Shown: positions 3,680 through 45,676 of the stretch, in pieces
Layout: the number at the start of each line of letters is the position of its first letter
How positions within the stretch are numbered: the first letter of the stretch is position 1
NCBI GenBank assembly: GCA_015065135.1
Contig: SVQY01000008.1
Span: 1,264 to 65,263, forward strand
DNA: 64,000 nucleotides
Direction of reading: 5' to 3'
Origin: Oscillospiraceae bacterium
Lineage (GTDB): Bacteria > Bacillota > Clostridia > Oscillospirales > CAG-272
Program-made: the position numbers and the translations under genes
Notes under the pieces: generated by a model
Databases searched by the model: none
Told to the model about the DNA's origin: nothing
The model's input: only the letters and a program-made list of their open reading frames with translations

Positions 3680-4378
3680 TTAAGGACGGCTTGCATCCTC
3701 CCCCGGCTCGCCGCCGTACAGGATGCGGTAGCTGCCCTCGGTCAGGATTTTCAGCAGCGTGGCGTTGTCGGTGACGGGCAGATCGGTCAGAATGCCGGAG
3801 ACCGCATCCGCAAAGCCGCGGTGGTTATCCGAGCCGCCGATGCCCTGCAGCGAGTAGCGCTCAGCCCATAGGGCTGCCACGTCGTTGCGGGAGCATTCCC
3901 GGCGCTGCGCGTTGTAAATTTCGATACCGTGTAGCAATTTTGGCTCCACCACCACCATACGGTTGCGGAAGGGATGTGCCTGATAGATACGCATGCCCGC
4001 CTCCCGCACACGCGCCGAGAGGGTGGCTACGTCGGTCTGCAGCAGGTCGGGGTAGGCGCGCAAGAACTCCTCGGTCATACCGAACACCAAAAAGTCGGTG
4101 GCAGAGTAGCAGTCGGGGCAGATCTCAGTGCCCAGCAGCACCGTCATACGGTCGCCTGCCGCCGCCTTCATGCGGTGATAGGCCGAAAGGTAGTGGTCGA
4201 TCTTTTCGTCCCAGGTGGCATCTTTCAGATGCCGCAGCCCCGCGGCATTCAGATGGTTGGTCAGCACCACCGTGTCATAGCCTGCCTCGATGTAGGCGGC
4301 AGCCTGCGCCTCGGGTTCGATATGGGCGCAGATGCTGACCGGCAGATTGTGGCAGTGCAGCTCGATCTTGTAGGCCAT
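3680..4378 (-). CDS. PHP (polymerase/histidinol-phosphatase) family metal-dependent phosphoesterase, paralog 2
   Basis: MAYKIELHCHNLP...TNH...QAHPFRN...GSDNH matches PHP His/Asp metal motifs; ATG at 4378 lies 1 nt after the stop of the upstream paralog. Confidence 0.65.
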   Translation of the reverse strand: MAYKIELHCHNLPVSICAHIEPEAQAAAYIEAGYDTVVLTNHLNAAGLRHLKDATWDEKIDHYLSAYHRMKAAAGDRMTVLLGTEICPDCYSATDFLVFGMTEEFLRAYPDLLQTDVATLSARVREAGMRIYQAHPFRNRMVVVEPKLLHGIEIYNAQRRECSRNDVAALWAERYSLQGIGGSDNHRGFADAVSGILTDLPVTDNATLLKILTEGSYRILYGGEPGEDASRP

Positions 4379-4379
4379 C

Positions 4380-5093
4380 TTATTTATCCAGACTGTCGGC
4401 AAAAAGGCTGTCGTTGCGCAGCAGCTTGTAGTTGCCGCTCCTCAGAGTCGCGACCAGCTCCTCGTTGCAGGTGATGGGGGTGTCGGTCTCAATGCCGCCG
4501 GAAATGAACATTTTTTCGCTGTGCAGATCCGAGCCGGAGGTCTTGATCATGCCGTAATGCTCCGCCCAGAGCATGGCGATCTCATTGCGGAAGGGGGCGT
4601 GGGTATGGGTGCCGTTGTAGACCTCCAGACCGTCCAGCAGCTCGGGTAGGGTGATCACCATATGATTGCGGAAGGGGTGCGCCTGCACAAGCAGTCCGCC
4701 GGCACTGCGCACCGCCTCGGAGAGGGTGTTCACGTGATAGCGCAGAAGGTCCACGTGAGTGCGCAGAAACTCCTCCGAGAGACCGTACACCAGATAGTCG
4801 GTGGCGTGGTGACGGTCAAGGCGGATCTCAAAGCCCTGCATAATGTGCAAGCGCCCCTTTGCCGCCCTTTGCAGGTCGCGGTAGGATCGCATATAAAAAT
4901 CCACCTTGGCATCCCAGTCATCGGGATCGCCGCTGTAATTGCCGTATTGGAAGGTGTCGCGGCTGATGTGATCGGTGATCACCAGAGAGGTATAGCCGGC
5001 CTCCAGATAGCGCTCTACCAGGCGCTCGGGGGAAATGCGCCCACAGGCGCTGACGATGTCGCAATGACAGTGCAGTTCGGTCTTAAAGCTCAT
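4380..5093 (-). CDS. PHP family metal-dependent phosphoesterase, paralog 1
   Basis: MSFKTELHCHCDIVS...ITDH...QAHPFRNHM...GSDLH; same architecture as the downstream paralog. Confidence 0.65.
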   Translation of the reverse strand: MSFKTELHCHCDIVSACGRISPERLVERYLEAGYTSLVITDHISRDTFQYGNYSGDPDDWDAKVDFYMRSYRDLQRAAKGRLHIMQGFEIRLDRHHATDYLVYGLSEEFLRTHVDLLRYHVNTLSEAVRSAGGLLVQAHPFRNHMVITLPELLDGLEVYNGTHTHAPFRNEIAMLWAEHYGMIKTSGSDLHSEKMFISGGIETDTPITCNEELVATLRSGNYKLLRNDSLFADSLDK

Positions 5094-5163: not shown

Positions 5164-6009
5164 TCATTTTTCGGTTTTTCTCTCTCGCTTCGGGCTTTCG
5201 CCGAATACGCGCTTGTACTGGCGGTAAAAGGCGGAATAATCCCCAAATCCGCAGCTGGCGGCGGCGATGGCGGCGCTTTTGCCGTCCAGCAGCATTCGTC
5301 TGGCGGCGTGCAGGCGCTTCAGCACCACATATTCCCACACGGTAGAGCCGGTGGAGCTGGAAAAGAGACGGTTCAGCGTGGATTTGCTGAAAAAGAAGCG
5401 CTGCTCCAGCTCGGCAAGCCCCTCGATCTCGGTGAGATGGCGGTTGATGTAGTCGATGATCTCGGGCAGCAGGGTCGCGCTTTCCCCCTTCAGCGCGCTT
5501 TGGGGCAGAGGCGCGTTTTCTCTCATGCTGCAAAGCTCGGTGAGCAGAGCAGGGAGGTTGGCGGTCAGCGAAAGGGCGAAATCTGCCTCGCTTGCGTGGG
5601 GGCGGCAGATGCGGGCAAAGCAGGCGGCAAGGAACTCGGCACTCTCACCCGTTTTGGGGGTGAACAGATTGCCGCAGCCGGGCGAGCGATCCAGAAAAAG
5701 TGAGCGTAACCCCCCGAACGGGGTGTTTTTTTGCAAAATTTCATCCAAAGGGAAGTGGATCGCCATTCGCTCGTAGGGCACGCGGTCGCTGATGTGCAGC
5801 TTGTGGATCTCGCCGTCTCGCGTCAGCAATATGCTACCCGGCGAGAGGGGATAATCTCGCCCCTCGATGGTGTAATAGCCGTCGCCCTGAATGAAATAAA
5901 ATACCTCACAAAAGGGGTGCGCGTGGAGCGGAAAATCCGCTTCATTGGGGTGCGCATCAATAGAATGATGCACCATACAGTCGTTGTATTCCTGCTTGAA
6001 TATTTGCAT
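5164..6009 (-). CDS. AraC family transcriptional regulator (cupin sensor + HTH)
   Basis: ATG at 6009 after GGAAAGGAGGG; N-terminal cupin (HAHPFCEVFYFIQGDGYY), C-terminal AraC HTH (FGDYSAFYRQYKRVFGESP). Confidence 0.8.
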   Translation of the reverse strand: MQIFKQEYNDCMVHHSIDAHPNEADFPLHAHPFCEVFYFIQGDGYYTIEGRDYPLSPGSILLTRDGEIHKLHISDRVPYERMAIHFPLDEILQKNTPFGGLRSLFLDRSPGCGNLFTPKTGESAEFLAACFARICRPHASEADFALSLTANLPALLTELCSMRENAPLPQSALKGESATLLPEIIDYINRHLTEIEGLAELEQRFFFSKSTLNRLFSSSTGSTVWEYVVLKRLHAARRMLLDGKSAAIAAASCGFGDYSAFYRQYKRVFGESPKRERKTEK

Positions 6010-6059: not shown

Positions 6060-6090
6060 ATATTTGCAATATAAATAGATATATTTGCAA
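6060..6090. promoter_or_regulatory. candidate operator: direct repeat ATATTTGCAA x2 with 21-bp phasing in the divergent araC/uxuA region
   Basis: ATATTTGCAA at 6060-6069 and 6081-6090; TATAAT at 6113-6118 without a good -35, as expected for an activator-dependent promoter. Confidence 0.4.
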
Positions 6091-6152
6091 AAATATTGCC
6101 GCTTGGATGCGGTATAATGAAGCTGACAAATAATGAAAGGTAGGAATTTGCC

Positions 6153-7187
6153 ATGAAAATGACATTCCGTTACTACGGCAAAAGCGATCCCGTGACCCTG
6201 ACGGCCATCTCGCAGATCCCCACGGTCCGCTCTATCGTTTCCGCCGTCTATGACGTGCCCGCAGGCGGTGTCTGGAGCCGCGAGAGCATCGCCGCCCTGA
6301 AGGCGGATGCCGAGGCGCACGGGCTTTCCTTTGAGGTGGTGGAGAGCGTACCCGTTCCCGAGGATATCAAGCTGGGCAACGAGAAGGCTGCCGCCCTCAT
6401 CGAGAACTATTGCGAGAACGTGCGCCGTCTCGGCGAGGCAGGCGTGAAGTGCATCTGCTATAACTTTATGCCCGTGTTTGACTGGCTGCGCAGCGAGCTG
6501 CACCGCCCTGCGGCAGACGGCTCCAACTCGCTGGCCTATGACGAGCGGACGGTGCTTGCCATGAACCCTGCCAAGGGCGGACTTTCGCTGCCCGGCTGGG
6601 ATGAAAGCTATACCGTTGAGGGACTGCGCGACCTGCTCTCGCAGTATGCGGATATGACCGAGGAGAAGCTGTGGAAGAACCTGCAGACCTTCCTGGAGGC
6701 GGTCATTCCCGTTGCCCACGAGGCGGGCGTGAATATGGCCATCCACCCCGATGACCCGCCGTGGGGCATTTTCGGGCTGCCCCGTATCATCACCTGCGAG
6801 AAGAACCTGGACAGATTTTTGAAGCTGGTGGATATGAAGGAGAACGGCCTGACCTTCTGCACCGGCTCTCTTGGTGCGGATCCCGCCAACGATCTGGTGG
6901 GAATGGCAGGGAAGTATGCGGATCGCATCCACTTTGCCCACATCCGCAACATCAAGCACACCGGCGAGCGCCAGTTCCACGAGACGGCGCACCCCACCGA
7001 GTACGGCTCGCTGGATATCTACGGCATCATGAAGGCGCTGCACGATCACGGCTTTGACGGCTACATCCGCCCCGACCACGGCCGTATGATCTGGGGCGAG
7101 GACGGCAAGCCCGGCTACGGCCTGTACGACCGCGCCCTTGGCGCCACCTACCTCTCGGGCCTCTGGGAGGCTATTGATAAGGCATAA
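6153..7187 (+). CDS. uxuA: mannonate dehydratase
   Basis: MKMTFRYYGKSDPVTLTAISQIP...CYNFMPVFDW...HPDDPPW...HFAHIRN; full-length UxuA-like sequence of typical ~345 aa. Confidence 0.85.
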   Translation: MKMTFRYYGKSDPVTLTAISQIPTVRSIVSAVYDVPAGGVWSRESIAALKADAEAHGLSFEVVESVPVPEDIKLGNEKAAALIENYCENVRRLGEAGVKCICYNFMPVFDWLRSELHRPAADGSNSLAYDERTVLAMNPAKGGLSLPGWDESYTVEGLRDLLSQYADMTEEKLWKNLQTFLEAVIPVAHEAGVNMAIHPDDPPWGIFGLPRIITCEKNLDRFLKLVDMKENGLTFCTGSLGADPANDLVGMAGKYADRIHFAHIRNIKHTGERQFHETAHPTEYGSLDIYGIMKALHDHGFDGYIRPDHGRMIWGEDGKPGYGLYDRALGATYLSGLWEAIDKA

Positions 7188-7390
7188 GTGCCCGAACGGT
7201 GCGTAAAAATCGCACATTCCCCCCATATAAAAGTTTTGATCCAACTTTTTCAAAAGTTGGCGGGTGTGGGCAGAGCCCACAAAAACGGCATTTCTTTTTG
7301 TTAGCTTTTTCTTTGTGCCTTGCACAGTCAAAGAAAAAGCGGCTATGGAATCCGCAGTTACAGTGCGGCTACACAAGAAAGGAACTACTT

Positions 7391-8215
7391 ATGAAAAAAG
7401 TATGTGTCATCACAGGCGCAGGCGGCGTGCTTTGCTCTGCCTTCGCCAAGGAAATGGCGGCAAACGGCTATGCCGTTGCGCTGCTGGATCTGAACGAGGC
7501 CGCCGCCAAGGCTGTGGCCGATGAGATCACCGCCGCAGGCGGCACCGCCAAGGCGTATGCCACCAACGTGCTGGATAAGGCTGTGCTGGAGAGCGTGCAC
7601 GAGCAGGTGCTGGCCGACCTCGGCCCCTGCGACGTGCTGATCAACGGCGCGGGCGGCAATAATCCCAGAGCCACCACCGCCCACGAGACCTATGAGAAGG
7701 GTGACGAGGCGAGAGAGGACATCGCCACCTTCTTCAATCTGGACAAATCCGGCTTCGAGTTCGTATTCAACCTCAATATTATGGGCACGCTGCTGCCCAC
7801 CCAGGTCTTTGTGAAGGATATGATCGGCCGCGAGGGCTGCTCCATTCTGAACATCTCCTCGATGAACGCCTTTACGCCCCTCACCAAGATCCCTGCGTAT
7901 TCTGCGGCCAAGGCGGGCATCTCCAACTTCACCCAGTGGCTCGCCGTGCATTTTGCACCTGCGGGCATCCGCGTAAACGCCATGGCGCCCGGCTTCTTTG
8001 CCACCAATCAGAATCGCGCCCTCCTTTTTAACGAGGATGGCTCTCTGACCCCTCGCAGCGGCAAGATCCTGGCGGCAACCCCTATGGGTCGCTTTGGTAA
8101 GCCCGAGGAGCTGCTTGGCACCCTCAACTTCCTGACCAACGCAGAGGTCTCCGGCTTTGTCACCGGTGTGGTGATCCCCGTTGACGGCGGCTTCTCTGCC
8201 TACTCGGGTGTATAA
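7391..8215 (+). CDS. uxuB: SDR-family D-mannonate oxidoreductase (fructuronate reductase type)
   Basis: ATG at 7391; TGAGGVLC Rossmann motif, YSAAK catalytic motif, and the insert GGNNPRATT...FFNLD typical of SDR-type UxuB; sits next to uxuA. Confidence 0.65.
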   Translation: MKKVCVITGAGGVLCSAFAKEMAANGYAVALLDLNEAAAKAVADEITAAGGTAKAYATNVLDKAVLESVHEQVLADLGPCDVLINGAGGNNPRATTAHETYEKGDEAREDIATFFNLDKSGFEFVFNLNIMGTLLPTQVFVKDMIGREGCSILNISSMNAFTPLTKIPAYSAAKAGISNFTQWLAVHFAPAGIRVNAMAPGFFATNQNRALLFNEDGSLTPRSGKILAATPMGRFGKPEELLGTLNFLTNAEVSGFVTGVVIPVDGGFSAYSGV

Positions 8216-8259
8216 AATCCATACACGTGACGCGTTTTTTGCGACAAAAGGAGAAAAAT

Positions 8260-9102
8260 ATGGTCAATTATAAGCTTTGTGCCTTTGCTGATGAGGCGGA
8301 TAAGGCCCTTGCGGGTCAGATCCGTGCCATGCAGGAAAACGGCATCGAATATCTGGAAATGCGGGGCGTGAACGGCATCAACGTTGCAAAGCTCACCGCC
8401 GCCGAGGCAAAGAGCGCCGCCGCCGAGCTGAAGGCGGGCGGCATCAAGGTCTGGTCGCTGGGCTCCCCCGCAGGCAAGACCCCCATCACCGATCCCTTTG
8501 ATTTTGAACAGGAGCAGTTCAAGAGACTGCTGGAGACTGCCGATATCACCGGTGCCAAATGCATCCGTCTGTTCAGCTTCTACGGCACCGACGGCAAGGC
8601 GGCGTACCGCGACGAGGTCATGGCGCGCCTTTCCCGCTTCGTGGAGCTTGCCAAGGGCAGCGGTGTGATCCTCTGCCACGAGAACGAGAAGGGCATTTAC
8701 GGCGATAACGCCGCCAGATGCCTGGAGATCCACCGGTTGGTTCCCGAGCTGAAGGGCGTGTTCGACCCTGCCAACTTTGTGCAGTGCGAGCAGGATACCC
8801 TGGAGGCGTGGGATATGCTGGAGCCGTACATCTATTACGGTCATATCAAAGATGCCAACAAGGAGGGCAAGGTGGTGCCCCCCGGTAAGGGCGAGGGCAA
8901 TCTGCCCACCTACCTGAAGCGCTTCTTCGCCAAGGGCTGCGAGGTGCTGACCCTGGAGCCTCACCTGACCAAGTTCGTGGGGCTTGCCGCGCTGGAGAAC
9001 GACGACGTGCCCCAGTCGGTTGCCGATTGGAGCTTCAAGAGCAACCGCGAGGCGTTCGATTTTGCAACCAATACCTTAAAGAAAATGCTGGAGGAGCTGT
9101 AA
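8260..9102 (+). CDS. xylose-isomerase-like TIM-barrel protein (sugar phosphate isomerase/epimerase family) 1
   Basis: ATG at 8260 after AAAGGAGAAAA; the motifs CHENE, DPANF, HIKD and LEPH resemble the AP_endonuc_2/TIM-barrel metal-ligand pattern. Confidence 0.7.
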   Translation: MVNYKLCAFADEADKALAGQIRAMQENGIEYLEMRGVNGINVAKLTAAEAKSAAAELKAGGIKVWSLGSPAGKTPITDPFDFEQEQFKRLLETADITGAKCIRLFSFYGTDGKAAYRDEVMARLSRFVELAKGSGVILCHENEKGIYGDNAARCLEIHRLVPELKGVFDPANFVQCEQDTLEAWDMLEPYIYYGHIKDANKEGKVVPPGKGEGNLPTYLKRFFAKGCEVLTLEPHLTKFVGLAALENDDVPQSVADWSFKSNREAFDFATNTLKKMLEEL

Positions 9103-9103
9103 T

Positions 9104-9901
9104 ATGGGAACTGTTATCGGCGCTCAGCTCTATACGCTGAGAGATTATTGTAAGACCCCCGAGGATCTGGAAAACACCCTCAAACGGGTCGCGAAAATGG
9201 GCTATAAGGCCGTGCAGCTGTCGGGTGTTTGCGCGTGCGACCCCGTTTGGCTGAAGGGCGTGCTGGACCGCCTTGGTCTGGTGGCACCCCTGACCCACAC
9301 CTCTCCCAAGCTGCTGGCCGAAAAGCCGGAGGCCGTGATCGAGGCGCATAAGACGATCGGCGCGAATTATATCGGCATCGGTTCCGCCCCCGGCATTTTC
9401 CAGAAGGAGGAGCCCCGTCGCCCCTTGGACGAGATCTACAACGAGCTGATCGAGAAATTCGCACCCGTGATCGAAAAGATCAAGGCAGCAGGCCTGCAGT
9501 TCGGCTACCATCACCACGACAGGGAATTTGCCAAGCTGGCAAACGGTAAGCTGTTCATCGACGAGCTCTGTGACCGCTTTACCCCTGCCGAGTGTGCCAT
9601 CATCGTGGATACCTACTGGGTGCAGGCGGGCGGCTCGGATCCTGCGGCTTGGCTGCGTAAGCTGAACGGCCGCATCAAGTGCATCCATTTCAAGGATATG
9701 TCCTTCAGCACCGAGGATCAGAAGGTGCGTATGGCCGCCATCGGTGACGGCAACATCAATTGGGATGCTGTCTTTGCTGCCGTGAAGGAAAGCGACATCG
9801 AGTACGCCTTCGTGGAGCAGGATAAGTCCTACGATGAGGATCCCTTTGATTGTATGGAGAGAAGTCTGAAGTTCATCCGCGCACACGGCTTCGCGGACTA
9901 A
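9104..9901 (+). CDS. xylose-isomerase-like TIM-barrel protein (sugar phosphate isomerase/epimerase family) 2
   Basis: Starts 1 nt after the previous stop; YHHHDREF, VDTYW, IHFKD and VEQD resemble the metal-ligand pattern of the same fold. Confidence 0.7.
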   Translation: MGTVIGAQLYTLRDYCKTPEDLENTLKRVAKMGYKAVQLSGVCACDPVWLKGVLDRLGLVAPLTHTSPKLLAEKPEAVIEAHKTIGANYIGIGSAPGIFQKEEPRRPLDEIYNELIEKFAPVIEKIKAAGLQFGYHHHDREFAKLANGKLFIDELCDRFTPAECAIIVDTYWVQAGGSDPAAWLRKLNGRIKCIHFKDMSFSTEDQKVRMAAIGDGNINWDAVFAAVKESDIEYAFVEQDKSYDEDPFDCMERSLKFIRAHGFAD

Positions 9902-9917
9902 AAAGGAGGCAAACGGT

Positions 9918-11126
9918 ATGCAAAAGATCAAGCTTGGTATCATCGGCTTCGGCAATATCGGCTGCGGCAATCACACCAAAAATATCTGGAAGGGCAAGTG
10001 CCCCGAGGTGGAGCTTGCCGCCGTGGCGGATCACGATCCCGCCCGTCTGGAGGCCTGCCGCGAGATGTGCAAGGAGTATCAGAAGGAATATCCCGACAAT
10101 AACATCAGCGAGCCGCTGCTTTTTGAGAGCGCTGAGGCGATGATGGACGCGAAGGTGGTGGATGCGGTGCTGGTCGCCGTGCCGCATTACGATCATCCCG
10201 GCCTCACCATCAAGGCGCTGGAGCGCGGTCTGCACGTGATGTGCGAGAAGCCCGCAGGCGTCTACACCCTGCAGGTGAGGGAGATGATGGCCTGCGCCGA
10301 CAAGCACCCCGAGCTGGTGTTCGGTATGATGTTCAATCAACGCACCAATCCCGTATTCCGCAAGATGCGGGAGATCATTCAGAGCGGTGAGCTTGGCGAG
10401 ATCCGCCGCACCAACTGGCTGATCACCAACTGGTACAGACCCCAGTACTATTACGACTCAGGCGCTTGGCGCGCTACCTGGAGCGGAGAGGGCGGCGGCG
10501 TGCTGCTGAACCAGTGCCCTCATAATCTGGATCTTTGGCAGTGGATCTGCGGTATGCCCAAAAAGATCCACGCGCATATGCATTTCGGCAAGTGGCACGA
10601 CATTGAGGTGGAGGACGACGTGACCGCCTACGCCGAGTACGAAAACGGCGCGACGGGTACCTTTATCACCACCACCGGCGATACCCCCGGCACCAACCGC
10701 TTTGAGGTGGTCTGCGATGGCGGCACCCTGATCTGCGAGGATGCCAAGACCCTGACCTTGAAGAAGCTGGAAATGACCATCGACGAGTATTCCAGAACCA
10801 ATACCACCTCTGCCTTCGGCAAGCCCAAGGCCGAGATCATTACTCCCGAGCTTGAGGGAGAGAATTCTCAGCACGTTGGCGTGCTGAATGCTTTCGCTGC
10901 CGCGATCCTGCGCGGTGAGCCCCTGGTGGCCGACGGCCGTGAGGGCATCAACGGCCTGATGATCTCCAACGCCATGCACCTCTCCGCGTGGGAGGATCGC
11001 ACCGTGGAGCTGCCCTTTGACGAGCAGCGCTTCTACGACCTGCTCATGGAGCGCGTCAAGACCTCCCGCCGCAAGGAGAATGTGGCGAGCGTGGTCAGCG
11101 ATACCGAGGGAAGCTATAACGCATAA
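9918..11126 (+). CDS. Gfo/Idh/MocA family NAD(P)-dependent oxidoreductase
   Basis: IKLGIIGFGNIG Rossmann motif and EKP motif (VMCEKPAG); ~400 aa, typical of the family. Confidence 0.8.
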   Translation: MQKIKLGIIGFGNIGCGNHTKNIWKGKCPEVELAAVADHDPARLEACREMCKEYQKEYPDNNISEPLLFESAEAMMDAKVVDAVLVAVPHYDHPGLTIKALERGLHVMCEKPAGVYTLQVREMMACADKHPELVFGMMFNQRTNPVFRKMREIIQSGELGEIRRTNWLITNWYRPQYYYDSGAWRATWSGEGGGVLLNQCPHNLDLWQWICGMPKKIHAHMHFGKWHDIEVEDDVTAYAEYENGATGTFITTTGDTPGTNRFEVVCDGGTLICEDAKTLTLKKLEMTIDEYSRTNTTSAFGKPKAEIITPELEGENSQHVGVLNAFAAAILRGEPLVADGREGINGLMISNAMHLSAWEDRTVELPFDEQRFYDLLMERVKTSRRKENVASVVSDTEGSYNA

Positions 11127-11134
11127 CGCACCTT

Positions 11135-11193
11135 GCGCACCGTCACTTTTTGCGAGAAAATCGCAAAAAGGGCTTGACGGTGCGCCTTTTTTT
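11135..11193 (+). terminator. nested-stem terminator after the oxidoreductase gene
   Basis: Outer stem GCGCACCGTCA / TGACGGTGCGC, inner stem CTTTTTGCGA / TCGCAAAAAG, then CTTTTTTT. Confidence 0.7.
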
Positions 11194-11201
11194 GATATAA
11201 T
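11174..11201 (+). promoter_or_regulatory. promoter overlapping the 3' arm of the preceding terminator
   Basis: TTGACG (11174-11179), 16-nt spacer, TATAAT (11196-11201). Confidence 0.5.
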
Positions 11202-11250
11202 GAGGGTGAGGCTCGCAAGCCGAAAATACATACCGTTAAGGGGGTAAAAC

Positions 11251-12207
11251 ATGAAAAAGGATATGCTTTGGGGCATTATGATCTATCTGGGCGACCATAT
11301 GTGGGACGATGAGACCACGCCGCCCCGCGGCTGGTATCTGGATCCGCTCTACACCGAGAATATGAGGACCACCGAAAAGGCGTGGGATATGTCTGTGCAG
11401 TTTATGGCCGAGCGGCAGTATAATATGGCGCTGATCGACGTGGGCGACGGCATCAAGTATGAGAGCCACCCCGAGATCTCGGTACCCAACGCCTGGGATA
11501 AGGATTTCCTGCGCAAGAAGTTAAACGAAATGCGCGCTCTTGGCATCGAGCCCATCCCGAAGCTCAATTTCTCCACTGCTCACGATACCTGGATGAAGCA
11601 GTATCGCCGTATGATCTCCACCCCCGCCTATTATCAGTTCTGCGCCGATGTGATCCGCGAGGTCTGTGAGGTGTTCGATCACCCCCGTTTCTTCCACCTG
11701 GGCTGCGACGAGGAGGTGCCCGAGCATCAGAAGAGGTTTGAAATGACGGTGGTGCGCCACGCTGATCTTTGGTGGCACGATTTCTATTTCCTTTGCCGCG
11801 AGTGCGAGAAGAACGGCACCCGCCCCTGGATCTGGTCGGATTACCTCTGGAAAAACGAGGCGCTGTTCCTCCGGAATATGCCCAAGGACGTGCTGCAATC
11901 CAACTGGTTCTACGGCGATTTCAAGGACTACGGCGACGACCATCCGGGCAGCCGCCGTTCTATAGAGTGCTATGAGCTGCTGGATAAGCACGGCTTCGAG
12001 CAGATCCCCACGGGTTCTACCTGGTCCCGCGCCAACAATCTCTATCAAACGGTGGGTCACGGCAAGAATAAGTTGGATCAAAGCCGCCTGCTGGGCTTCC
12101 TCGGTGCCCCCTGGAGCTTCACCGACGAGGAGGGTGTCTACACGCTCTTCAACGAGGCAAACAAGCTCTATCTCGCACGCAAAAAATGGTATCCCGAGAC
12201 CCTGTGA
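11251..12207 (+). CDS. cytoplasmic glycoside-hydrolase-like TIM-barrel protein (GH20-like HxGxDE motif), function uncertain
   Basis: FFHLGCDEE resembles the GH20 H-x-G-x-D-E catalytic motif; no signal peptide; RBS GGGGG before the ATG. Confidence 0.4.
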   Translation: MKKDMLWGIMIYLGDHMWDDETTPPRGWYLDPLYTENMRTTEKAWDMSVQFMAERQYNMALIDVGDGIKYESHPEISVPNAWDKDFLRKKLNEMRALGIEPIPKLNFSTAHDTWMKQYRRMISTPAYYQFCADVIREVCEVFDHPRFFHLGCDEEVPEHQKRFEMTVVRHADLWWHDFYFLCRECEKNGTRPWIWSDYLWKNEALFLRNMPKDVLQSNWFYGDFKDYGDDHPGSRRSIECYELLDKHGFEQIPTGSTWSRANNLYQTVGHGKNKLDQSRLLGFLGAPWSFTDEEGVYTLFNEANKLYLARKKWYPETL

Positions 12208-12232
12208 TGCGCAAAAAACGCAACACGGTATC

Positions 12233-12271
12233 AAAAAAAGCCGAAACGTCGAGGACGTTTCGGCTTTTTTT
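12233..12271. terminator. bidirectional terminator between convergent genes
   Basis: A-tract, then GCCGAAACGTC-GAG-GACGTTTCGGC, then T-tract. Confidence 0.8.
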
Positions 12272-13280
12272 ACTTGCTTTGATTTTTTTGAAGCTCGGCG
12301 TTCTGCCGGCGGAAATTGCGCAGCGTCACGCCCTTGAAAATGGTCAGAAATACGCGCTGCGGCAGCACGACGTACATTGCCTTTTCGATCTTGTGGATCG
12401 GGCCGCCGGCGGAAGGCTTTTTGATCACGTCGGAAAAGATCGAGCCCTTGACGTACTTGTTAAAGAGCTTGTTGGCCGGGTGCAGATTGCGCTTGTGCCA
12501 GGGGAAGTCCCCGAGGTAGCGGTAAACGTGCAGGATCACGGGGTTCTCGCGTGCCTCCTCCAGCTCGGCGGCGGTATAATACACCTTGGGCTTGTAGACC
12601 TTGAAATAGGTTTTGTCGCGAAAGGCCAGGTGATGGGGCTGCAGGTTGTAGCCGGGGGGGAGCAGATAGGCACGCCCCTGCAGCACCAGGTTGAGCAGAT
12701 CCTGATCCGGGTTGCAGTACTGCGCCTGCACGTGCTGGATGTGATCCATCATTTTTTCAGTGATGCCTTGCTTTTTCCATTCGGGCACGTTGATCAGCGA
12801 AACGCCGGCGTTGAAATACAGATCCTCCGGCTTCAGCCCCAGCATCTCCTTGTATTTGATCGAGAGCGAGTCCCGTACCACGCCGATGACCTTGTCCCCC
12901 ATATCCAGCTCGGCCAGCGGCAGCAGCGAGCCGGTGACAAGGGTGTCGCAATCGATATACAGCAGGCGACGGGTGTCCTTTTTGACGAACAGATCAAAGA
13001 ACAGACGGAAATTGGTGGTGTAGGAGCCGCGGTACATGGGAATGCCCAGCGCCTTGATGCGGCGGATGATGGCGGCGGCATCCACAAAGGTCAGCGTGCG
13101 CCCATAGTGCTTGGCCTGCCGCAGCAGCCGCAGCAGCGTCGGGCGACTGACGTTATCCACCACGCAGTAGATGGTCATATCGGTCAGATCCTTGTTGTTT
13201 TCGAACAGAGAATACATCGATACACCCGCCCACGGGGCGTAATTTTCATCAAATGCGTATAAAATGCTCAAATCCTTCAT
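12270..13280 (-). CDS. glycosyltransferase family 8 (retaining hexosyltransferase)
   Basis: ILYAFDENYAPWAGVSMYSLFENN...LLYIDCDTLV (DxD) is GT8-like; start taken at ATG 13280 (AAAGGA RBS), alternative ATG at 13316. Confidence 0.7.
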   Translation of the reverse strand: MKDLSILYAFDENYAPWAGVSMYSLFENNKDLTDMTIYCVVDNVSRPTLLRLLRQAKHYGRTLTFVDAAAIIRRIKALGIPMYRGSYTTNFRLFFDLFVKKDTRRLLYIDCDTLVTGSLLPLAELDMGDKVIGVVRDSLSIKYKEMLGLKPEDLYFNAGVSLINVPEWKKQGITEKMMDHIQHVQAQYCNPDQDLLNLVLQGRAYLLPPGYNLQPHHLAFRDKTYFKVYKPKVYYTAAELEEARENPVILHVYRYLGDFPWHKRNLHPANKLFNKYVKGSIFSDVIKKPSAGGPIHKIEKAMYVVLPQRVFLTIFKGVTLRNFRRQNAELQKNQSK

Positions 13281-13383
13281 AGCTTTGATCCTTTGCGTTT
13301 TATCGTGCTTGTTCATAAGCTCATTATAGCACGGTGAGCGACCTTTGTCAAGAAAGTGCGGTCGCTGCCGCCTCGCGCGCGTG

Positions 13384-13412
13384 TTGACAAGCATTATCTT
13401 TAGTGTTATAAT
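13384..13412 (+). promoter_or_regulatory. promoter of the polysaccharide-locus plus-strand operon
   Basis: TTGACA (13384-13389), 17-nt spacer, TATAAT (13407-13412). Confidence 0.6.
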
Positions 13413-15173: not shown

Positions 15174-15932
15174 ATGTCGGATATCAAGATATACGTGGCG
15201 GCGCACAAGCGCTTTGAGGTCTCAAAGCGGCTCACGCCGGCCTATCAGCTCCTGCAGGTGGGCAGCGAGGGCAGGGAGCCCCTTGGCTTTCTGCGCGATA
15301 ATGAGGGAGATCATATTTCAGAAAAAAACGCCAGCTATTGTGAGCTGACCGGCCTTTACTGGATCTGGAAGAACACGACCTCGGATGTGGTCGGCCTTTG
15401 CCACTACCGCCGCTACTTCTCCTCGCGACTGCTGGACCGTGAGCTGCATCAGCTGCTCACCGAGCCGCAGATCGAGCGCATTATGAAAAAATACGATGTG
15501 ATCCTGCCGCGCCGTGTGGACCTTGGAAGGCAGACGGTGCGCACCCATTACGCGGCCGCACACTATGAAAAGGATCTGGATACCACCCGTCGCGCCATCG
15601 CGGCGCTCTATCCCGATTACCTGCCTGCCTTTGACGACGTGATGGGGATGCATCGCACCTATCAGTGCAATATGTTCATTATGCCGCGCGAGCTGATGAA
15701 CGCCTACTGCAAATGGCTCTTTGACGTGCTTTCGTACGTGGAGGAGAATACCGATATCAGCGAATACGATGCGGTGCAGCGCCGTGTCTTCGGCTATCTT
15801 GGCGAGAGGCTGCTGCACGTTTGGGTGCATCATCGCCAGCTGCGCGTGTGTGAAAAATGGTTCGCCAGCACCGAAATGACGGTCAAAAAGATCGCGCAGA
15901 CCCTGCTGGATCGGGTGAAAAAGAAAAAGTAA
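15174..15932 (+). CDS. DUF4422 domain protein (putative exopolysaccharide glycosyltransferase)
   Basis: IKIYVAAHKRF...YCELTGLYWIWKN...GLCHYRRYF...NMFIM...RVFGYLGERLL matches the DUF4422 signature. Confidence 0.75.
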   Translation: MSDIKIYVAAHKRFEVSKRLTPAYQLLQVGSEGREPLGFLRDNEGDHISEKNASYCELTGLYWIWKNTTSDVVGLCHYRRYFSSRLLDRELHQLLTEPQIERIMKKYDVILPRRVDLGRQTVRTHYAAAHYEKDLDTTRRAIAALYPDYLPAFDDVMGMHRTYQCNMFIMPRELMNAYCKWLFDVLSYVEENTDISEYDAVQRRVFGYLGERLLHVWVHHRQLRVCEKWFASTEMTVKKIAQTLLDRVKKKK

Positions 15933-15952
15933 GAAAAAAGGAGGTGACCGCG

Positions 15953-17422
15953 GTGAAGGAAAGGTCGTTTGCCAAAAATTACGTCTTCAATCTCATCTAT
16001 CAGATCGTGGCGATCGCGCTGCCGCTGGTCACGACGCCCTATCTTTCCCGCGTTTTGGGGGCGGACGGTATCGGAAAATACTCCTTTGCCCAGTCTATCG
16101 TCTCCTATTTTGCGCTGTTTGCAGCGCTTGGCACCACGCTTTACGGGCAGCGGCAGGTGGCGAAGGTCAAGGATGACCCCGCCGCACGCAGCCGCGTGTT
16201 TTTCGAGGTGCTGATCTTCCGCTTCCTCGGCGTTCTGCTGGCCTGCGCCACCTATTGCTTCGGCGTGATGCTGAACGTCAACGAGCCGCTTTTATATGCG
16301 GTGGCGGCCATCGAGATCCTGACGGTGGCATTGGACATTACCTGGTTCTACCAGGGTGTGGAGGATTTCGGTATTATCGCCGTGGGCACCACGCTGGGGC
16401 GGCTTGCCGCAATGATCTGCGTGTTCTGCTTTGTGAAGCGCAAAGAGGATCTGGTGCTCTACATCTGCCTTTACTGTGCCTCGATCCTGCTGGGCAATCT
16501 GCTCTCCTGGATCGGCCTGCGCCGCTATCTGGTACGCATGAAAGGCATACGGTTGCGGATTTTGGTGCATTTGCTGCCGGCGCTGGCGCTGTTTGCCTCG
16601 CAATTTGCCATGCAGGTCTATACCGTGCTGGATAAGACGATGATCGGTCTGATCACCGGCTCGGATTTTGAAAACGGCTATTACGAGCAAAGTCAGAAGC
16701 TGGTAAAGGTGCTGATCGCGCTGGTGACCTCGCTGGGTGCGGTGATGGCCTCCCGCGTGGCGGTGCTCTGGAATACCGATCGCAAAAAGGAGGTCTATCC
16801 GCTGCTGTACGGCTCCTTCCGCTTGGTCTTCGCGCTGGGGCTGCCGATGGCGGTGGGTGTCACACTGATCCTCTCTCGCTTCGTGCCGGTCTTTTACGGC
16901 GGCGGCTTTGAGCCGGTGATCCCCATCATCACGGTGCTGACGCTCATGTTCCCGATCCTTGGCTGCAGCAACGTCATCGGTATCCAGTATCTGGTACCGA
17001 CCGGCAGAGAAAGGTGGCTGACGGTATCGGTTTTGTGCGGTGCCGCGGCAAACGTGGTGTTGAATTTTTTCTTTATCCATATTTGGCAGGCAATGGGCGC
17101 CGCCATCGCCTCGGTCATTGCCGAGCTGGTGGTCACGGCAGTCCAGTTCATCGTGGTCAGAAAAGAGATCCGCGTGTGGCCGGTCCTGAAGCTGTTTTTG
17201 CGTTATCTGGCCTTTTCTGCCGTAATGGGGGCTGCGGGCTACGGCCTCACCCTGGTGGCGCCGGGCGGTATTCTCGGCATCACGCTGATCGTGCTGCCCT
17301 GCGTGGCACTCTACGGCGTGCTGCTGCTGATCACAAAGGATCCGATCTTCCAATTCTTCCGTTCGCGCAAAATGGCATCCGAGACAGATGAGAAAAAACA
17401 AGAAAGTAGGGAAACGGTATGA
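15953..17422 (+). CDS. polysaccharide flippase (Wzx-like, MOP superfamily)
   Basis: GTG at 15953 after AAGGAGG; NYVFNLIYQIVAIALPLVTTPYLSRVLGADGIGKYSFAQSIVSYF is a typical Wzx N-terminus; about 14 TM segments. Confidence 0.75.
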   Translation: MKERSFAKNYVFNLIYQIVAIALPLVTTPYLSRVLGADGIGKYSFAQSIVSYFALFAALGTTLYGQRQVAKVKDDPAARSRVFFEVLIFRFLGVLLACATYCFGVMLNVNEPLLYAVAAIEILTVALDITWFYQGVEDFGIIAVGTTLGRLAAMICVFCFVKRKEDLVLYICLYCASILLGNLLSWIGLRRYLVRMKGIRLRILVHLLPALALFASQFAMQVYTVLDKTMIGLITGSDFENGYYEQSQKLVKVLIALVTSLGAVMASRVAVLWNTDRKKEVYPLLYGSFRLVFALGLPMAVGVTLILSRFVPVFYGGGFEPVIPIITVLTLMFPILGCSNVIGIQYLVPTGRERWLTVSVLCGAAANVVLNFFFIHIWQAMGAAIASVIAELVVTAVQFIVVRKEIRVWPVLKLFLRYLAFSAVMGAAGYGLTLVAPGGILGITLIVLPCVALYGVLLLITKDPIFQFFRSRKMASETDEKKQESRETV

Positions 17423-18699
17423 GAAAAGTGACGTTTCAGAAGGAACTTGTCGAGAAAAGGCACTACGATCTGATCGTTTGTGGCGGCGGTGTTGCCGGCG
17501 TAGCCGCGGCGGTGACTGCTGCCAATCGCGGTCGCTCGGTGCTGCTGATCGAAAAATCCAATATTCTGGGCGGCCTTGCCACCCTGGGGCGCATCAATCT
17601 GTTTGTGCCGATGTGCAACGGCAGGGGCAAGCAGATCATCTTCGGCCTTTGCGAGAAATGGACGCGGATGAGCGCCAAATACGGCTATGACACCATTCCT
17701 GCCGAATGGCGGGACGGTGAGCCCAAGACGTATACCGAAAAACGCTACACGCAACGCTTTTCTCCGTACATTTTTGCCTTTCAGCTAAACGAGGAGATCA
17801 AGGCAAGCGGCGCGGATATCCTGCTGGACTGTATGGCCTGCGATCCCGTGATGGAGGGGAATGTGTGCCGCGGTGTGATCACCGAGAGCAAGTCGGGCAT
17901 GGAGCTGTACGGCTGCGAGATGCTGATCGATGCCACGGGCGACTGTGACGTGCTGCGCCGCGCAGGCGTGCCTACGGTGGCAGGGCAGAATTTTTATACC
18001 TATGGCGTGACCGCCATCAGTCTTGACAGTATGCGTACCGCGCTGGAGACCGGCGACATCCGCAAGGCCTACACCGGCATCTCGGGCGGCAGCATCAATC
18101 TGTTTGGCGACAATCAGCCTGCGGATGTGCCTCGTTGGTCGGGACTCACCGCCGAGGAGGTCACCGACTACCTGCTGACGATGCAACAGAATGTGTTGGA
18201 TAAGCTGAAGAAGACCGATCGCAGATCCCGCGATGTGGCGGTGATGCCGATGATGCCGCAGTTTCGCACCACGGCGCATATCGTGGGTGACTATTCGCTA
18301 AAGGTGGCGGATGCCTATCGCCATTTTGATGATGCGGTGTGTGCTATCAATGATTTCGAGCATCGCGATCATCTCTTTGAGGTGCCGCTGCGCACTCTTT
18401 GCCGCCGCGATCATCCCAATCTGATGGCGGTGGGACGTGGGGCTGACGGTACCGGCTACGGCTGGGATCTGCTGCGTGTCATTCCGCCGGCGATCCTGAC
18501 GGGCCAGGCTGCTGCGCACGCTGCCTGCCACGCCATAGAGGAAAAGACCGCCGTTGTCGCCGTTGACATCAAAAGACTGCAAACGGTATTGGAAAAGGAC
18601 AATATGATGGTGCATTTCCCGGATGCGTATCTGCCCGAGGATCGCACCGTGGTCATCCACGGCAAGAACGCCGCCGAGATCGAGGGCGGCCACTTATAA
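17419..18699 (+). CDS. FAD-dependent oxidoreductase (GxGxxG flavoprotein, PF12831-like)
   Basis: YDLIVCGGGVAGVAAAVTAANRGRSVLLIEKSNILGG dinucleotide fold; ATG overlaps the flippase stop (ATGA). Confidence 0.65.
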   Translation: MRKVTFQKELVEKRHYDLIVCGGGVAGVAAAVTAANRGRSVLLIEKSNILGGLATLGRINLFVPMCNGRGKQIIFGLCEKWTRMSAKYGYDTIPAEWRDGEPKTYTEKRYTQRFSPYIFAFQLNEEIKASGADILLDCMACDPVMEGNVCRGVITESKSGMELYGCEMLIDATGDCDVLRRAGVPTVAGQNFYTYGVTAISLDSMRTALETGDIRKAYTGISGGSINLFGDNQPADVPRWSGLTAEEVTDYLLTMQQNVLDKLKKTDRRSRDVAVMPMMPQFRTTAHIVGDYSLKVADAYRHFDDAVCAINDFEHRDHLFEVPLRTLCRRDHPNLMAVGRGADGTGYGWDLLRVIPPAILTGQAAAHAACHAIEEKTAVVAVDIKRLQTVLEKDNMMVHFPDAYLPEDRTVVIHGKNAAEIEGGHL

Positions 18700-18823: not shown

Positions 18824-20653
18824 TTAATCTTTATAGCGGCACCAGACCAGCATATCGGTCTCACCGCGGTTGGCGAAGGCATAATAGGGAATCAGCGAAA
18901 TGCGCGTTTTTTCGTACACGTTGTCGACTTTTTGGAACAATCCGCCGGCTTTTGGTGCGGAAATGAGTGCGTCAACGGTGATGCGTGTGAGACCTGTTAG
19001 CGGGTCAAGCTCCTCGGTGGCGTTCATCTCGGGCACCAGCACAAGGCGGTGCAGATTTACGGGATTGTCGATACGCTCAGCGCAATAAACAATGGGGCCA
19101 CGCATCAATGCGACCTTGCCTGCGCTCTCGTCTACCTCAGCGTGAGCGGAATAATAAACGGGCTTCATTTCAAAGTCAAGTTCCACCGTGGTGGGGGCTT
19201 CCATATAGGCGTAGCCGTCCTTCACGGTCACGGGCACGTTGCATTTGTAGCTCTCGCACCAGCCGGGAATGCGCACGGCGGCGCGCTTCACGCCCGCAAA
19301 GGTCAGGGTGACCTTGCCGTTTTGCGGGTATTTGGTCTTTTGTGTCACGGTGGCACCGCCCTCGCTCCAAGTGCTGTCAGCAAACTGATCGACATAGTAA
19401 ACGCCGTTCGCAACGTGATAGAGGTAGCGCTCAAAGCTGGAGAACAAGCGGGTCAGATTGGGTGGGCAGCAGGAGCACTTGAATACCTCCACACGCTGGG
19501 TGATGGGGTATTTCTCCTCCTTGGGATTGAATCTTGTGCGCACGTGATTCTTCACGTTGATCTCAAGAGGGTTCTCATAGAAGAAGCTTTTGCCGTCCAG
19601 CGAAACACCGGAGAGCATACCGTTGTAGAGCTGGCGCTCGATCACGTCGGCAAACACCCCCTTGTGCTCCTGCTCCAGCATACGCTGCGCAAAGAACATC
19701 ATGCCGATCGAAGCACAGGTCTCATTATAGGTGCGTTCAGCAGGCAGGTCGTAGGCAAGGGTGAACGCCTCGCCGACACGGATGGAGCCAAGACCGCCGG
19801 TGATGTGCATTTTCCTGGTGGTGGCATCCTCGAAAAGGGCGTAGCAGGCCTTGCGCAAGGTCTCGTCACCCGTCTCGGCATACAGATCCGCCATTGCGCA
19901 ATAGAGGTACATGGCGCGCACGGCGTGACCGTCAGCCTCAAGCTGCTCGCGCACGGGAATGTGGCTTTGCGCATAAGCGGTAGTGCCGAGATAGTGATAA
20001 GAGCGTCCGTGCACGATGTTCTTGTCGCGCTCGCTGGTGCCGCGGGTGTTGACGAAATAAGCTGCCAGATCCAGATATTTCTTCTTGCCGGTGGCGCGGT
20101 AGAGGCGAACCAGAGCCAGCTCGATCTCCTCATGTCCGGGGGTGTCGAAGACGGCGCTGTGCTCCACGCGGAAGATGCGATCCACCAGCTCCACGTACTT
20201 CTCCATCATACGAAGGAAGCGATCCCTGCCGGTGGCGTAGTAGTAGGCAACGGCGGCCTCGATCAGGTGACCGCAGCAGTAAAGCTCGTGATGGTCACGG
20301 TTGGTGAAGCGATTTTCGGGCTCGACGGCGGTATAATAGCTGTTGAGATAGCCGTCCTCCCATTGGTTTGCTTCCATAGCATCAATGGCACGCTCGATCT
20401 TCTCCTCCAGCGCGGCATCGGGGTGCTTGGCAATGATATAGGCGGCGCCCTCGATCCATTTGGCCACGTCGCTGTCCCAGAAGATGTGGGGCTTGATCTC
20501 ATCCCCCTCCTTCCAGTTGCAATCCAGCGCGGCAAAGCGCCCGGTATCGGCAAAACGGTCGTAGACAGCGTTGATGGTCACCTTTCGGTTTTTCTCCTGC
20601 AGATCGTGCAAAAATCCGCCGGCGATAGTAACCTCATTGAAACGAAAATCCAT
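18824..20653 (-). CDS. glycoside hydrolase family 127 (beta-L-arabinofuranosidase-like, DUF1680)
   Basis: ATG at 20653 after AAAAGGAGGA; MDFRFNEVTIAGGFL...FWDSDVAKWIEG...CSCCPPN (GH127 Cys cluster). Confidence 0.8.
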   Translation of the reverse strand: MDFRFNEVTIAGGFLHDLQEKNRKVTINAVYDRFADTGRFAALDCNWKEGDEIKPHIFWDSDVAKWIEGAAYIIAKHPDAALEEKIERAIDAMEANQWEDGYLNSYYTAVEPENRFTNRDHHELYCCGHLIEAAVAYYYATGRDRFLRMMEKYVELVDRIFRVEHSAVFDTPGHEEIELALVRLYRATGKKKYLDLAAYFVNTRGTSERDKNIVHGRSYHYLGTTAYAQSHIPVREQLEADGHAVRAMYLYCAMADLYAETGDETLRKACYALFEDATTRKMHITGGLGSIRVGEAFTLAYDLPAERTYNETCASIGMMFFAQRMLEQEHKGVFADVIERQLYNGMLSGVSLDGKSFFYENPLEINVKNHVRTRFNPKEEKYPITQRVEVFKCSCCPPNLTRLFSSFERYLYHVANGVYYVDQFADSTWSEGGATVTQKTKYPQNGKVTLTFAGVKRAAVRIPGWCESYKCNVPVTVKDGYAYMEAPTTVELDFEMKPVYYSAHAEVDESAGKVALMRGPIVYCAERIDNPVNLHRLVLVPEMNATEELDPLTGLTRITVDALISAPKAGGLFQKVDNVYEKTRISLIPYYAFANRGETDMLVWCRYKD

Positions 20654-20748
20654 AATGTCCTCCTTTTTCGGTGGTGTGGCTTCAGCTCCATTATACAGAT
20701 TTTTGACGGCGCCGACAATTCCAAAAAACGATATTTGGTGCAAAAAGA

Positions 20749-20784
20749 TGACAAAACCGCCCCGCTGACACGGCGGGGCGGTTT
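20749..20784 (-). terminator. terminator after the GH78-like gene
   Basis: On the minus strand: AAACCGCCCCGCC-GTGTCA-GCGGGGCGGTTT followed by TGTCATCTTTTT. Confidence 0.7.
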
Positions 20785-20787
20785 GAA

Positions 20788-22713: not shown

Positions 22714-22879
22714 TGGGAACACCTCCACCAAAAGTTGGAAAGACTATGGTTCTGTAAATAAAAAATATAGAAACAAATACAAAATATTTGGAAAATACGA
22801 AAATAAATTTAGAAAACGCTTTCTTTGTGCTTGCATAAGGCTTTCGGGAGGGGCAGGTGCATTGTTTTTTGCAAAGGCA

Positions 22880-30320: not shown

Positions 30321-30465
30321 CTCCGTGTTACCTTCATTATATCGCGGCCGAAGCGGCTTTTCAATAGCTTTGTTTAGAAAAATCCAGGTTTATACACAAA
30401 AATGTATGGCCGCGCCGCCTTGGCTTTGCTATAATAAGGATGAAAAAATCATGTGAGGTGCTACT

Positions 30466-31422: not shown

Positions 31423-31434
31423 GGGAGGAAGCAA

Positions 31435-33654: not shown

Positions 33655-33672
33655 CAGAAAGTGAGAAACGGT

Positions 33673-34608: not shown

Positions 34609-34628
34609 GCCTTCCCCGCAAAAAGGCA

Positions 34629-34657
34629 TTGACTTTTTGCTGCGGCTGTGCTATACT
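34629..34657 (+). promoter_or_regulatory. promoter of the small orphan gene
   Basis: TTGACT (34629-34634), 17-nt spacer, TATACT (34652-34657). Confidence 0.55.
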
Positions 34658-34690
34658 ATATAGGATATTTTAGGAAAGCGAGGCAGAGCA

Positions 34691-34996: not shown

Positions 34997-34997
34997 G

Positions 34998-35040
34998 AAA
35001 AGGTGCGCCTGCCCTTGCGGCGGTCGCACCTTTTCTTTTT
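34998..35040 (+). terminator. rho-independent terminator
   Basis: AAAAGGTGCG...CGCACCTTTTCTTTTTT. Confidence 0.75.
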
Positions 35041-35134
35041 TGCTGAATAAATGTCCATAATTCGGTGAAAAAAATACTTGTATTTTCGCGTTGCGTGTGA
35101 TAGGATAAGGGAAAGGAAACAAGGGGGTGCGAAT

Positions 35135-37186: not shown

Positions 37187-37202
37187 AAAAAGAGGAAAAA
37201 CG

Positions 37203-45603: not shown

Positions 45604-45676
45604 GGTCGTTCTCCTTTGAGTGTATTTTTTGAAAGCGGGCAAACGGTGTGCAAACAGCACATCTGCAGGCTGCGCG

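Follow-up and report, generated by a model that had tools for sequence, protein, structure and literature searches.

A five-gene operon in the metagenome-assembled genome (MAG) of an uncultured Oscillospiraceae bacterium joins two genes of hexuronate catabolism, uxuA and uxuB, to a triad encoding two xylose-isomerase-like TIM barrels, here called TIM1 and TIM2, and one Gfo/Idh/MocA oxidoreductase, here called Oxi. It lies at 6153-11126, on the + strand, of a stretch of 64 000 nucleotides of contig SVQY01000008.1 (GenBank assembly GCA_015065135.1), which is the window analyzed in the present work. The homology of its proteins, the catalytic residues they retain, the organization of the operon and a synteny shared with relatives indicate that this AraC-controlled, cytoplasmic operon probably frees the aglycone from imported glucuronides, of alpha or beta configuration and O- or S-linked, without the intervention of a glycoside hydrolase.

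Drugs, hormones and bile pigments undergo an enterohepatic recycling that gut bacteria control by deconjugating glucuronides, an activity usually credited to GH2-type beta-glucuronidases. In 2024, a non-hydrolytic alternative was described from one fosmid, P2B11, without physiological context. This fosmid originates from a Collinsella-like Gram-positive gut bacterium and carries the genes Iso1-Oxido1-Oxido2-Iso2, in this order, whose products are reported in the preprint to cleave (thio)glucuronides of either configuration, alpha or beta, through an oxidation at C3 followed by a 1,2-elimination and a hydration (Nasseri et al., bioRxiv 10.1101/2024.03.25.586180). As described there, the activity requires Oxido1 and at least one of the Iso proteins, while Oxido2 is dispensable and only raises the rate; it depends on Mn2+ or Co2+, and added NAD(P)(H) is without effect. 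According to the same source, both Iso1 and Iso2 act as eliminases in vitro, Iso1 speeding the cleavage of glucuronides and also eliminating 3-keto-glucosides (bioRxiv 10.1101/2024.03.25.586180). Contig L081 encodes an oxidoreductase 99% identical to the crystallized P2B11 enzyme (PDB 8tdi), and the termini of its four genes agree with the primers published for cloning; L081 therefore stands in for P2B11 in the comparisons below. On this contig (4325-10162), genes for a GH3 protein, a GPH-family symporter (TIGR00792, 224 bits, slightly under the cutoff) and the glucuronate isomerase UxaC come right after Iso2, the symporter and UxaC being located 3-5 kb downstream of the cluster. The main text of the preprint leaves uxu genes unmentioned and reports no nearby regulator and no apparent transporter (bioRxiv 10.1101/2024.03.25.586180), though L081 does carry the symporter nearby.

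The comparison with this reference system rests in the first place on Oxi (9918-11126, + strand, 402 aa), a protein with three Pfam domains. Its best match in the PDB is 8tdi, entitled 'P2B11 glucuronide-3-dehydrogenase', with an E value of 1.1e-101 and 344 bits, the next-best chain reaching 111 bits; the identity is ~45% over about 390 aa. The pocket of Oxido1 comprises Asn147, Trp179, Arg181, Tyr185, Asn205 and His209 according to the preprint (Nasseri et al., bioRxiv 10.1101/2024.03.25.586180). For all six residues, the numbering of the paper equals the index in the 8tdi chain plus 10 (N137, W169, R171, Y175, N195 and H199), and the residues aligned to them in Oxi, N140, W172, R174, Y178, N198 and H202, are all conserved. 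On the model of the BT_2158 family (NF058561), Oxi scores 35 bits for a cutoff of 750. Oxi is therefore best described as a putative glucuronide 3-dehydrogenase that would operate with a bound NAD.

The two TIM barrels, which both match PF01261, have separate counterparts in the reference system. TIM2 (9104-9901, + strand, 265 aa) aligns with Iso2 of L081 (23% identity, E 1e-20) and shows no cross-match to Iso1, while TIM1 (8260-9102, + strand, 280 aa) aligns with Iso1 (35.5% identity over 287 aa, E 2e-49) and shows no cross-match to Iso2. Among solved structures, the best relative of TIM2 is AtOGE of Agrobacterium tumefaciens (8bvk, 2.6e-20), followed by 8tcs and 8tcd (about 3e-16). The metal of AtOGE is held by His132, Asp163, His189 and Glu233, and His134 is catalytic (PMC10628242). 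These positions align to H136, D169, H195 and E238 of TIM2 for the ligands and to H138 for the catalytic histidine, so that TIM2 can be proposed to act as a 3-keto-beta-glucuronide 1,2-lyase. The A. tumefaciens pathway, which consists of GlycDH, AtOGE and AtHYD (8ro4), differs in its substrates, 3-keto-O-beta-glucosides of plant phenolics instead of uronides (PMC10628242). The lyases AL1 and BT1 (8tcd, 8tcs, 8tct) of the Alistipes AL1-AL4 and Bacteroides thetaiotaomicron BT2156-2160 systems are also homologous to TIM2. These systems follow the same logic of C3 oxidation, 1,2-elimination, hydration and reduction but are periplasmic, act on neutral glucosides and use a DUF1080 alpha-lyase and hydratase; no DUF1080 domain was reported by Pfam among the scanned open reading frames (ORFs) of the window, about 55 in number. 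In TIM1, residues E141, D169, H195 and E233 are invariant among 17 homologues, and the AlphaFold2 model (predicted local distance difference test, pLDDT, 90.6) shows a generic barrel of the xylose-isomerase fold. TIM1 may thus be a metal-dependent 3-keto-glucuronide 1,2-lyase, a 2-hydroxy-3-keto-glycal hydratase, or both. AtHYD provides a precedent of a TIM-barrel hydratase for the role proposed here, although its likeness to TIM1 does not exceed the fold level, with 14% identity.

The operon and P2B11 thus possess one-to-one homologues for Oxido1 (44-45%), Iso1 (35.5%) and Iso2 (23%) with the pocket of Oxido1 kept, and in both cases the proteins are cytoplasmic, the host is Gram-positive and there is a link to glucuronate catabolism, carried at L081 by UxaC and the GPH symporter. 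They differ by gene order, TIM1-TIM2-Oxi here versus Iso1-Oxi1-Oxi2-Iso2, by the lack of Oxido2, by the co-transcription with uxuA-uxuB, by the divergent AraC gene and by the host, since the Oscillospiraceae belong to another phylum. The preliminary description of this DNA, drawn from its letters, had listed, among the possible functions of the triad, the cleavage of glycosides or glucuronides by a non-hydrolytic route, and this proposal is now strongly supported by the 45% identity of Oxi to 8tdi with its conserved pocket, by the pairing of TIM1 and TIM2 with Iso1 and Iso2 and by the eliminase residues of TIM2.

The operon is delimited on both sides. Upstream, a divergent gene (5164-6008, - strand) encodes an AraC-family regulator of 281 aa (PF12833, PF02311 and PF07883), whose true start is the ATG at 6008, preceded by a GGAGG ribosome-binding site; the start of the longest ORF, at 6165, is not genuine. 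The first gene of the operon, uxuA (6153-7187, + strand), encodes a D-mannonate dehydratase of 344 aa that covers the full length of PF03786 (1.2e-140) and exceeds the cutoffs of NF003027 (469 bits for 191) and TIGR00695 (380 bits for 199.55). It is followed by uxuB (7391-8215, + strand), encoding a D-mannonate oxidoreductase, or fructuronate reductase, of the short-chain dehydrogenase/reductase (SDR) type with 274 aa (NF006132, 425 bits for a cutoff of 281), then by TIM1, TIM2 and Oxi. Downstream of Oxi, an intrinsic terminator made of a nested stem and U7 (11135-11193, + strand) has, over 11135-11185, a folding energy of -34.8 kcal/mol (z -6.03) which none of 200 shuffled sequences equaled. 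The positions given for the five genes in the preliminary description, the gap of 1 nt between TIM1 and TIM2, and the terminator followed by a promoter after Oxi all agree with the ORF and domain scans and with the hairpin, U7 tract and promoter found there. Independent gene calls on metagenome contig L084, which encodes identical proteins, return the same lengths (344, 274, 280, 265 and 402 aa, and 281 aa for AraC), and the GenBank entries of the five proteins are consecutive (MBE6690238-MBE6690242, from an uncultured Ruminococcaceae/Oscillospiraceae MAG). Because of the tight packing of the genes, the promoter and operator region in front of them and the terminator behind, the five genes form one unit: uxuA-uxuB-TIM1-TIM2-Oxi is one operon, flanked by the divergent AraC gene on one side and by a strong terminator on the other. 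By inspection, no N-terminal signal peptide is visible in the proteins, which are therefore presumed to be cytoplasmic. The spacer of 203 nt between uxuA and uxuB (7188-7390, + strand) is structured, with several hairpins and a minimum free energy of -61 kcal/mol (z -2.5). This spacer is without match in Rfam, occurs once in the window and is absent from the closest relative, where the two genes are 45 nt apart; a role as attenuator or in processing may be envisaged. A search of positions 5000-13 000 with Rfam returned nothing relevant, the sole match being a sub-threshold sraL over the terminator at 12.2 kb.

The region between the divergent genes contains a candidate operator, read from the sequence: the direct repeat ATATTTGCAA, present at 6060-6069 and 6081-6090, 21 bp apart. 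The first copy provides the -35 element of the promoter of the araC-like gene (6069-6041, - strand), and the second overlaps the -35 element of the uxuA promoter, whose -10 element TATAAT is found at 6113-6118. Comparison with the closest relative reveals that the repeat block has been conserved while the rest of the intergenic region has diverged. This arrangement fits an AraC-type operator, to which the regulator would bind. A divergent AraC-type gene adjoins TIM1 in 36 of the 80 related loci described hereafter.

These loci were collected by scanning species-representative genomes with an alignment of the TIM1 family, and their neighborhoods were analyzed by tblastn and by clustering of six-frame ORFs. 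Nearly all 80 belong to MAGs of gut Clostridia from ruminants, horse, chicken, rabbit, mouse and human, with one Treponema. In 58 of the 60 loci with enough flanking sequence, Oxi is encoded at most 4 kb downstream of TIM1, and TIM1 with the oxidoreductase is the minimal conserved core. Two arrangements can be distinguished. Class A (39 loci) has the order TIM1-TIM2-Oxi, in some cases with a second Oxido1-type paralogue; UxuB is encoded directly upstream in 21/35 and UxuA in 9/31. Class B (34 loci) consists of TIM1-Oxi preceded by a divergent AraC gene. In 11 class B loci (L028, L033, L035, L038, L041, L053, L058, L061, L064, L065 and L080), there follows a gene for a multi-pass membrane protein of ~284 aa (for instance L041:2197-3051) without match in Pfam or NCBIfam. 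GH26 genes are found nearby in several class B loci, among them three of these 11 (L028, L041 and L053). A dedicated transporter is one possible identity for this membrane protein, and the substrate of these loci may not be the same. The closest relative of our operon, L002, comes from roe-deer caecum and shows the complete arrangement PHP-PHP-AraC-UxuA-UxuB-TIM1-TIM2-Oxi-GH20-like, with identities of 86-92% from UxuA through the GH20-like protein and of 49-71% for AraC and the PHP proteins. The block is conserved in dozens of species-level genomes and its arrangement is therefore not due to chance.

Two accessory gene types were encountered around these loci. Beyond the AraC gene, the window carries two tandem genes for PHP-domain metallo-hydrolases (3680-5093, - strand), and a homologue of PHP1 accompanies the cluster of TIM1 in five further loci (L002, L011, L017, L029 and L059). 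A divergent gene of the ThuA family (PF06283) stands beside the module in five relatives (L005:7086-7829, L006:2354-3103, L015:6960-7706, L011:339-1133 and L017:296-1090); the window itself has no homologue of ThuA. ThuA ('trehalose utilisation') is tied, with ThuB, to the formation of 3-keto-sugars.

From these elements, a catalytic route can be proposed. A glucuronide would be imported by a transporter encoded outside the window, and Oxi would oxidize C3 of its glucuronosyl moiety with bound NAD+. The metal-dependent TIM barrels would then abstract H2 and eliminate the aglycone, TIM2 as a beta-lyase of the AtOGE/AL1 type and TIM1 as an Iso1-type partner that probably eliminates as well. The resulting 2-hydroxy-3-keto-glycal would be hydrated to 3-keto-glucuronate, most likely by TIM1. 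We assign this step mainly to TIM1 because it is the universal partner of Oxi and the only TIM barrel of class B, and because the P2B11 authors, in their preprint, consider that Iso1 corresponds to the bifunctional AL2. The reduced form of Oxi would convert 3-keto-glucuronate to D-glucuronate, thereby regenerating NAD+. D-glucuronate would finally enter the Ashwell pathway, where UxaC, presumably encoded elsewhere in the genome, would yield fructuronate, UxuB mannonate and UxuA 2-keto-3-deoxygluconate (KDG). The activity, the substrate, the division of labor between TIM1 and TIM2 and the presence of uxaC elsewhere in the genome are thus all predictions from sequence.

A number of observations weigh against glucuronide cleavage by this operon. 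Identities of 45%, 35% and 23% leave room for a shifted substrate, which might be another uronide or a 6-anionic glycoside. The P2B11 assays followed the release of a fluorophore and, in the preprint's account, the sugar product is not reported (bioRxiv 10.1101/2024.03.25.586180). A tblastn search of the window with Oxido2 (333 aa) retrieves only the Oxi gene itself, at 34% identity and with partial coverage. Searches of the PDB with the TIM1 sequence and profile return only Art22 and AsbF with weak scores, and a literature search on the Art22 structure (8Z1I) retrieved no relevant paper; Foldseek with the TIM1 model places epimerases, AtHYD, YcjR and IolI at similar scores and does not discriminate function. 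Finally, no gene for a transporter, UxaC, KdgK or Eda is found in the window or in its flanks, which total ~13 kb. The preliminary description had remarked on the lack of uxaC, kdgK and eda, and this holds: UxaC, a PfkB-type KdgK and the 2-keto-3-deoxy-6-phosphogluconate (KDPG) aldolase Eda are missing from the Pfam scans of the window, tblastn with the UxaC, Eda and KdgK proteins of related loci gives no match there, and the ~7 kb of left and ~6 kb of right flank do not contain them either.

This lack lends itself to another interpretation, also raised in the preliminary description, in which the triad replaces UxaC: isomerization on a TIM barrel followed by reduction would turn a 3-keto-uronate or free glucuronate into fructuronate, and the five genes would be self-contained down to KDG. 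Compared with the canonical Ashwell operons uxaC-uxuA-uxuB-kdgK-eda, the operon indeed retains UxuA and an SDR-type UxuB that pass the family cutoffs, but misses uxaC, kdgK and eda and carries the putative glucuronide-cleaving module as an appendage. UxaC is encoded within 10 kb in only 3 of the 39 class A loci, no accessory gene is linked to TIM1 more tightly than UxuB (the 21/35 mentioned above), and the E-D-H-E site of TIM1 is typical of sugar isomerases and epimerases. However, genes for a canonical UxaC (PF02614, 8.5e-200), a KDPG aldolase and a PfkB kinase adjoin the module in 8, 6 and 6 relative loci, respectively. In L043 and L044, the gene string reads UxaC-UxuA-UxuB-(Eda-KdgK)-TIM1-TIM2-Oxi-Oxi; L063 and L078 are similar, UxaC also stands in the string of L067, L034, L042 and L055, and it is found beside the P2B11-type cluster. 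In a neighbor-joining tree, the UxuB sequences from loci that possess UxaC or UxuA and from loci that lack them are intermingled within one orthogroup, so that the SDR is an ordinary fructuronate reductase orthologue; a distinct paralogue of UxuB adjacent to TIM1 was considered and rejected on the same tree. The P2B11 preprint, moreover, describes Iso1 and Iso2 as eliminases in vitro. The replacement of UxaC by the triad is consequently not supported and appears decidedly unlikely. Restricted to the class A lineages devoid of uxaC, which are the majority and include the window, the idea is somewhat easier to entertain though still rather unlikely: 3-keto-uronate would be isomerized on TIM1 and reduced to fructuronate or mannonate, 'UxuB' possibly doubling as a keto-reductase of the Oxido2 type. 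If true, this would constitute a shunt from glucuronides to mannonate that skips glucuronate isomerase. The fold of TIM1 invites yet another reading, by analogy with YcjS/YcjR of Escherichia coli, where the dehydrogenase would form a 3-keto-uronate or 3-keto-uronide and the TIM barrel would epimerize its C2 or C4, a subsequent reduction giving the gluco-configured acid used by UxuB and UxuA, with no glycosidic bond cleaved. The TIM1 model does match ketose 3-epimerases, UlaE and YcjR (6wn6) with TM scores of 0.70-0.77, and TIM1 is without close solved lyase relative. Nevertheless, the hydratase AtHYD scores equally in the same fold search, the beta-eliminase site of TIM2 is complete, and the only strong characterized relative of TIM1 is Iso1, presented in the preprint as an enhancer of glucuronide cleavage and a 3-keto-glucoside eliminase. 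We regard an epimerization without cleavage as very unlikely.

The pairing of a Gfo/Idh/MocA oxidoreductase with a xylose-isomerase-like TIM barrel also recalls IolG, IolE and IolI, and in Thermotoga the degradation of inositol leads into the fructuronate/mannonate branch. A catabolism of inositol, by the classical enzymes or by a Thermotoga-type route ending in that branch, would find some echo in weak matches to the IolG (1.7e-23) and IolE (1.3e-14) models. These scores lie far under the equivalog cutoffs, with 83 bits versus 355 for IolG (TIGR04380) and 54 versus 290 for IolE (TIGR04379); the match of Oxi to 8tdi is three times stronger than to any inositol dehydrogenase structure, and no genes of the iolB, iolC, iolD or iolJ type, nor other iol genes, were seen in the window by Pfam scans. 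The analogy with inositol catabolism drawn in the preliminary description does not survive these figures and this function is highly improbable. The analogy made in the same place with C-glycoside deglycosidases (DgpA/B/C) stops at superfamily-level similarity. Deglycosylation of the DgpA/DgpBC or CarABC type could be invoked since DgpA structures are among the distant matches of Oxi (E about 1e-9 to 1e-10) and since the alpha subunits of C-glycoside eliminases (CGEs) and AtOGE have a common TIM-barrel metal site. Yet the operon contains no gene for the small beta subunit of CGEs, both TIM genes encoding full-length barrels; the first metal ligand of TIM2 is a His, at the position of His132 in AtOGE, versus a Glu in CGEs; the BT enzymes are reported to oxidize C-glycosides without cleaving them; and the linkage to uxuAB points to uronic acids. 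A C-glycoside substrate is hardly credible in this context. Cleavage of O- or S-linked glucuronides is the reading we retain.

The mechanism is not new, having been demonstrated biochemically in 2024 for homologous proteins. What is new here is the operon link to uxuAB, the putative control by AraC, the three-gene form without Oxido2 and the wide spread of the module, which is found among the uncultured Clostridia inhabiting the gut of ruminants, horses, poultry, mice and humans. Its frequent co-transcription with hexuronate catabolic genes under AraC would make it a means of acquiring carbon from glucuronides. Our literature search found no follow-up on 3-keto-glucuronide cleavage, nor any such operon, beyond the bioRxiv preprint. 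The GenBank names of the TIM barrels and Oxi are generic ('sugar phosphate isomerase/epimerase' and 'Gfo/Idh/MocA oxidoreductase') and no NCBIfam model recognizes these proteins of the module; surveys of glucuronidases therefore miss these genes.

Downstream of the operon terminator, a gene of 318 aa (11251-12207, + strand) possesses its own near-consensus promoter, TTGACG-16-TATAAT (11174-11201), and ends at a strong bidirectional terminator (12233-12271). It had been described as GH20-like: its position stands, but the GH20 label is weak, with 20.8 bits in Pfam under the cutoff of 22.3 and a best PDB match of E 0.0011. Its membership in the system was considered and rejected on account of its own promoter and terminator and of a linkage to the module restricted to L001 and L002, the two closest relatives; it probably lies outside the system. 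Convergent with it, a GT8 glycosyltransferase gene (12270-13394, - strand; PF01501, 3.2e-35) shares the bidirectional terminator, which has an 18-bp stem. An ORF of 358 aa on the + strand (12186-13262), without Pfam match, is spurious. Beyond GT8 lies a polysaccharide-synthesis set composed of a DUF4422 protein (15174-15932), a flippase (15857-17422) and an FAD oxidoreductase (17419-18699).

The remainder of the window contains further sugar-related genes. Hydrolases of plant glycans are encoded near the operon, all on the - strand: a GH127 beta-L-arabinofuranosidase (18824-20791), a rhamnosidase-like protein (20788-22731) and a GH39-like protein (25326-26786). Such a neighborhood hints at plant arabinogalactan or pectin, whose side chains may represent the natural glucuronides. 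A second sugar locus (29487-38321) comprises an AraC regulator (29487-30320, - strand), a glycyl-radical enzyme with PFL-like and Gly_radical domains (31435-33654), for which no activase was identified among the scanned ORFs, an aldo/keto reductase (33661-34608), a GH36 protein (35078-37186) and a BNR-repeat protein (37119-38321). Lastly, a gene for a BspA-type leucine-rich-repeat protein (44272-45660, - strand) lies in a block of low G+C content, 0.457 versus about 0.57-0.60 around it, and may have been acquired horizontally.

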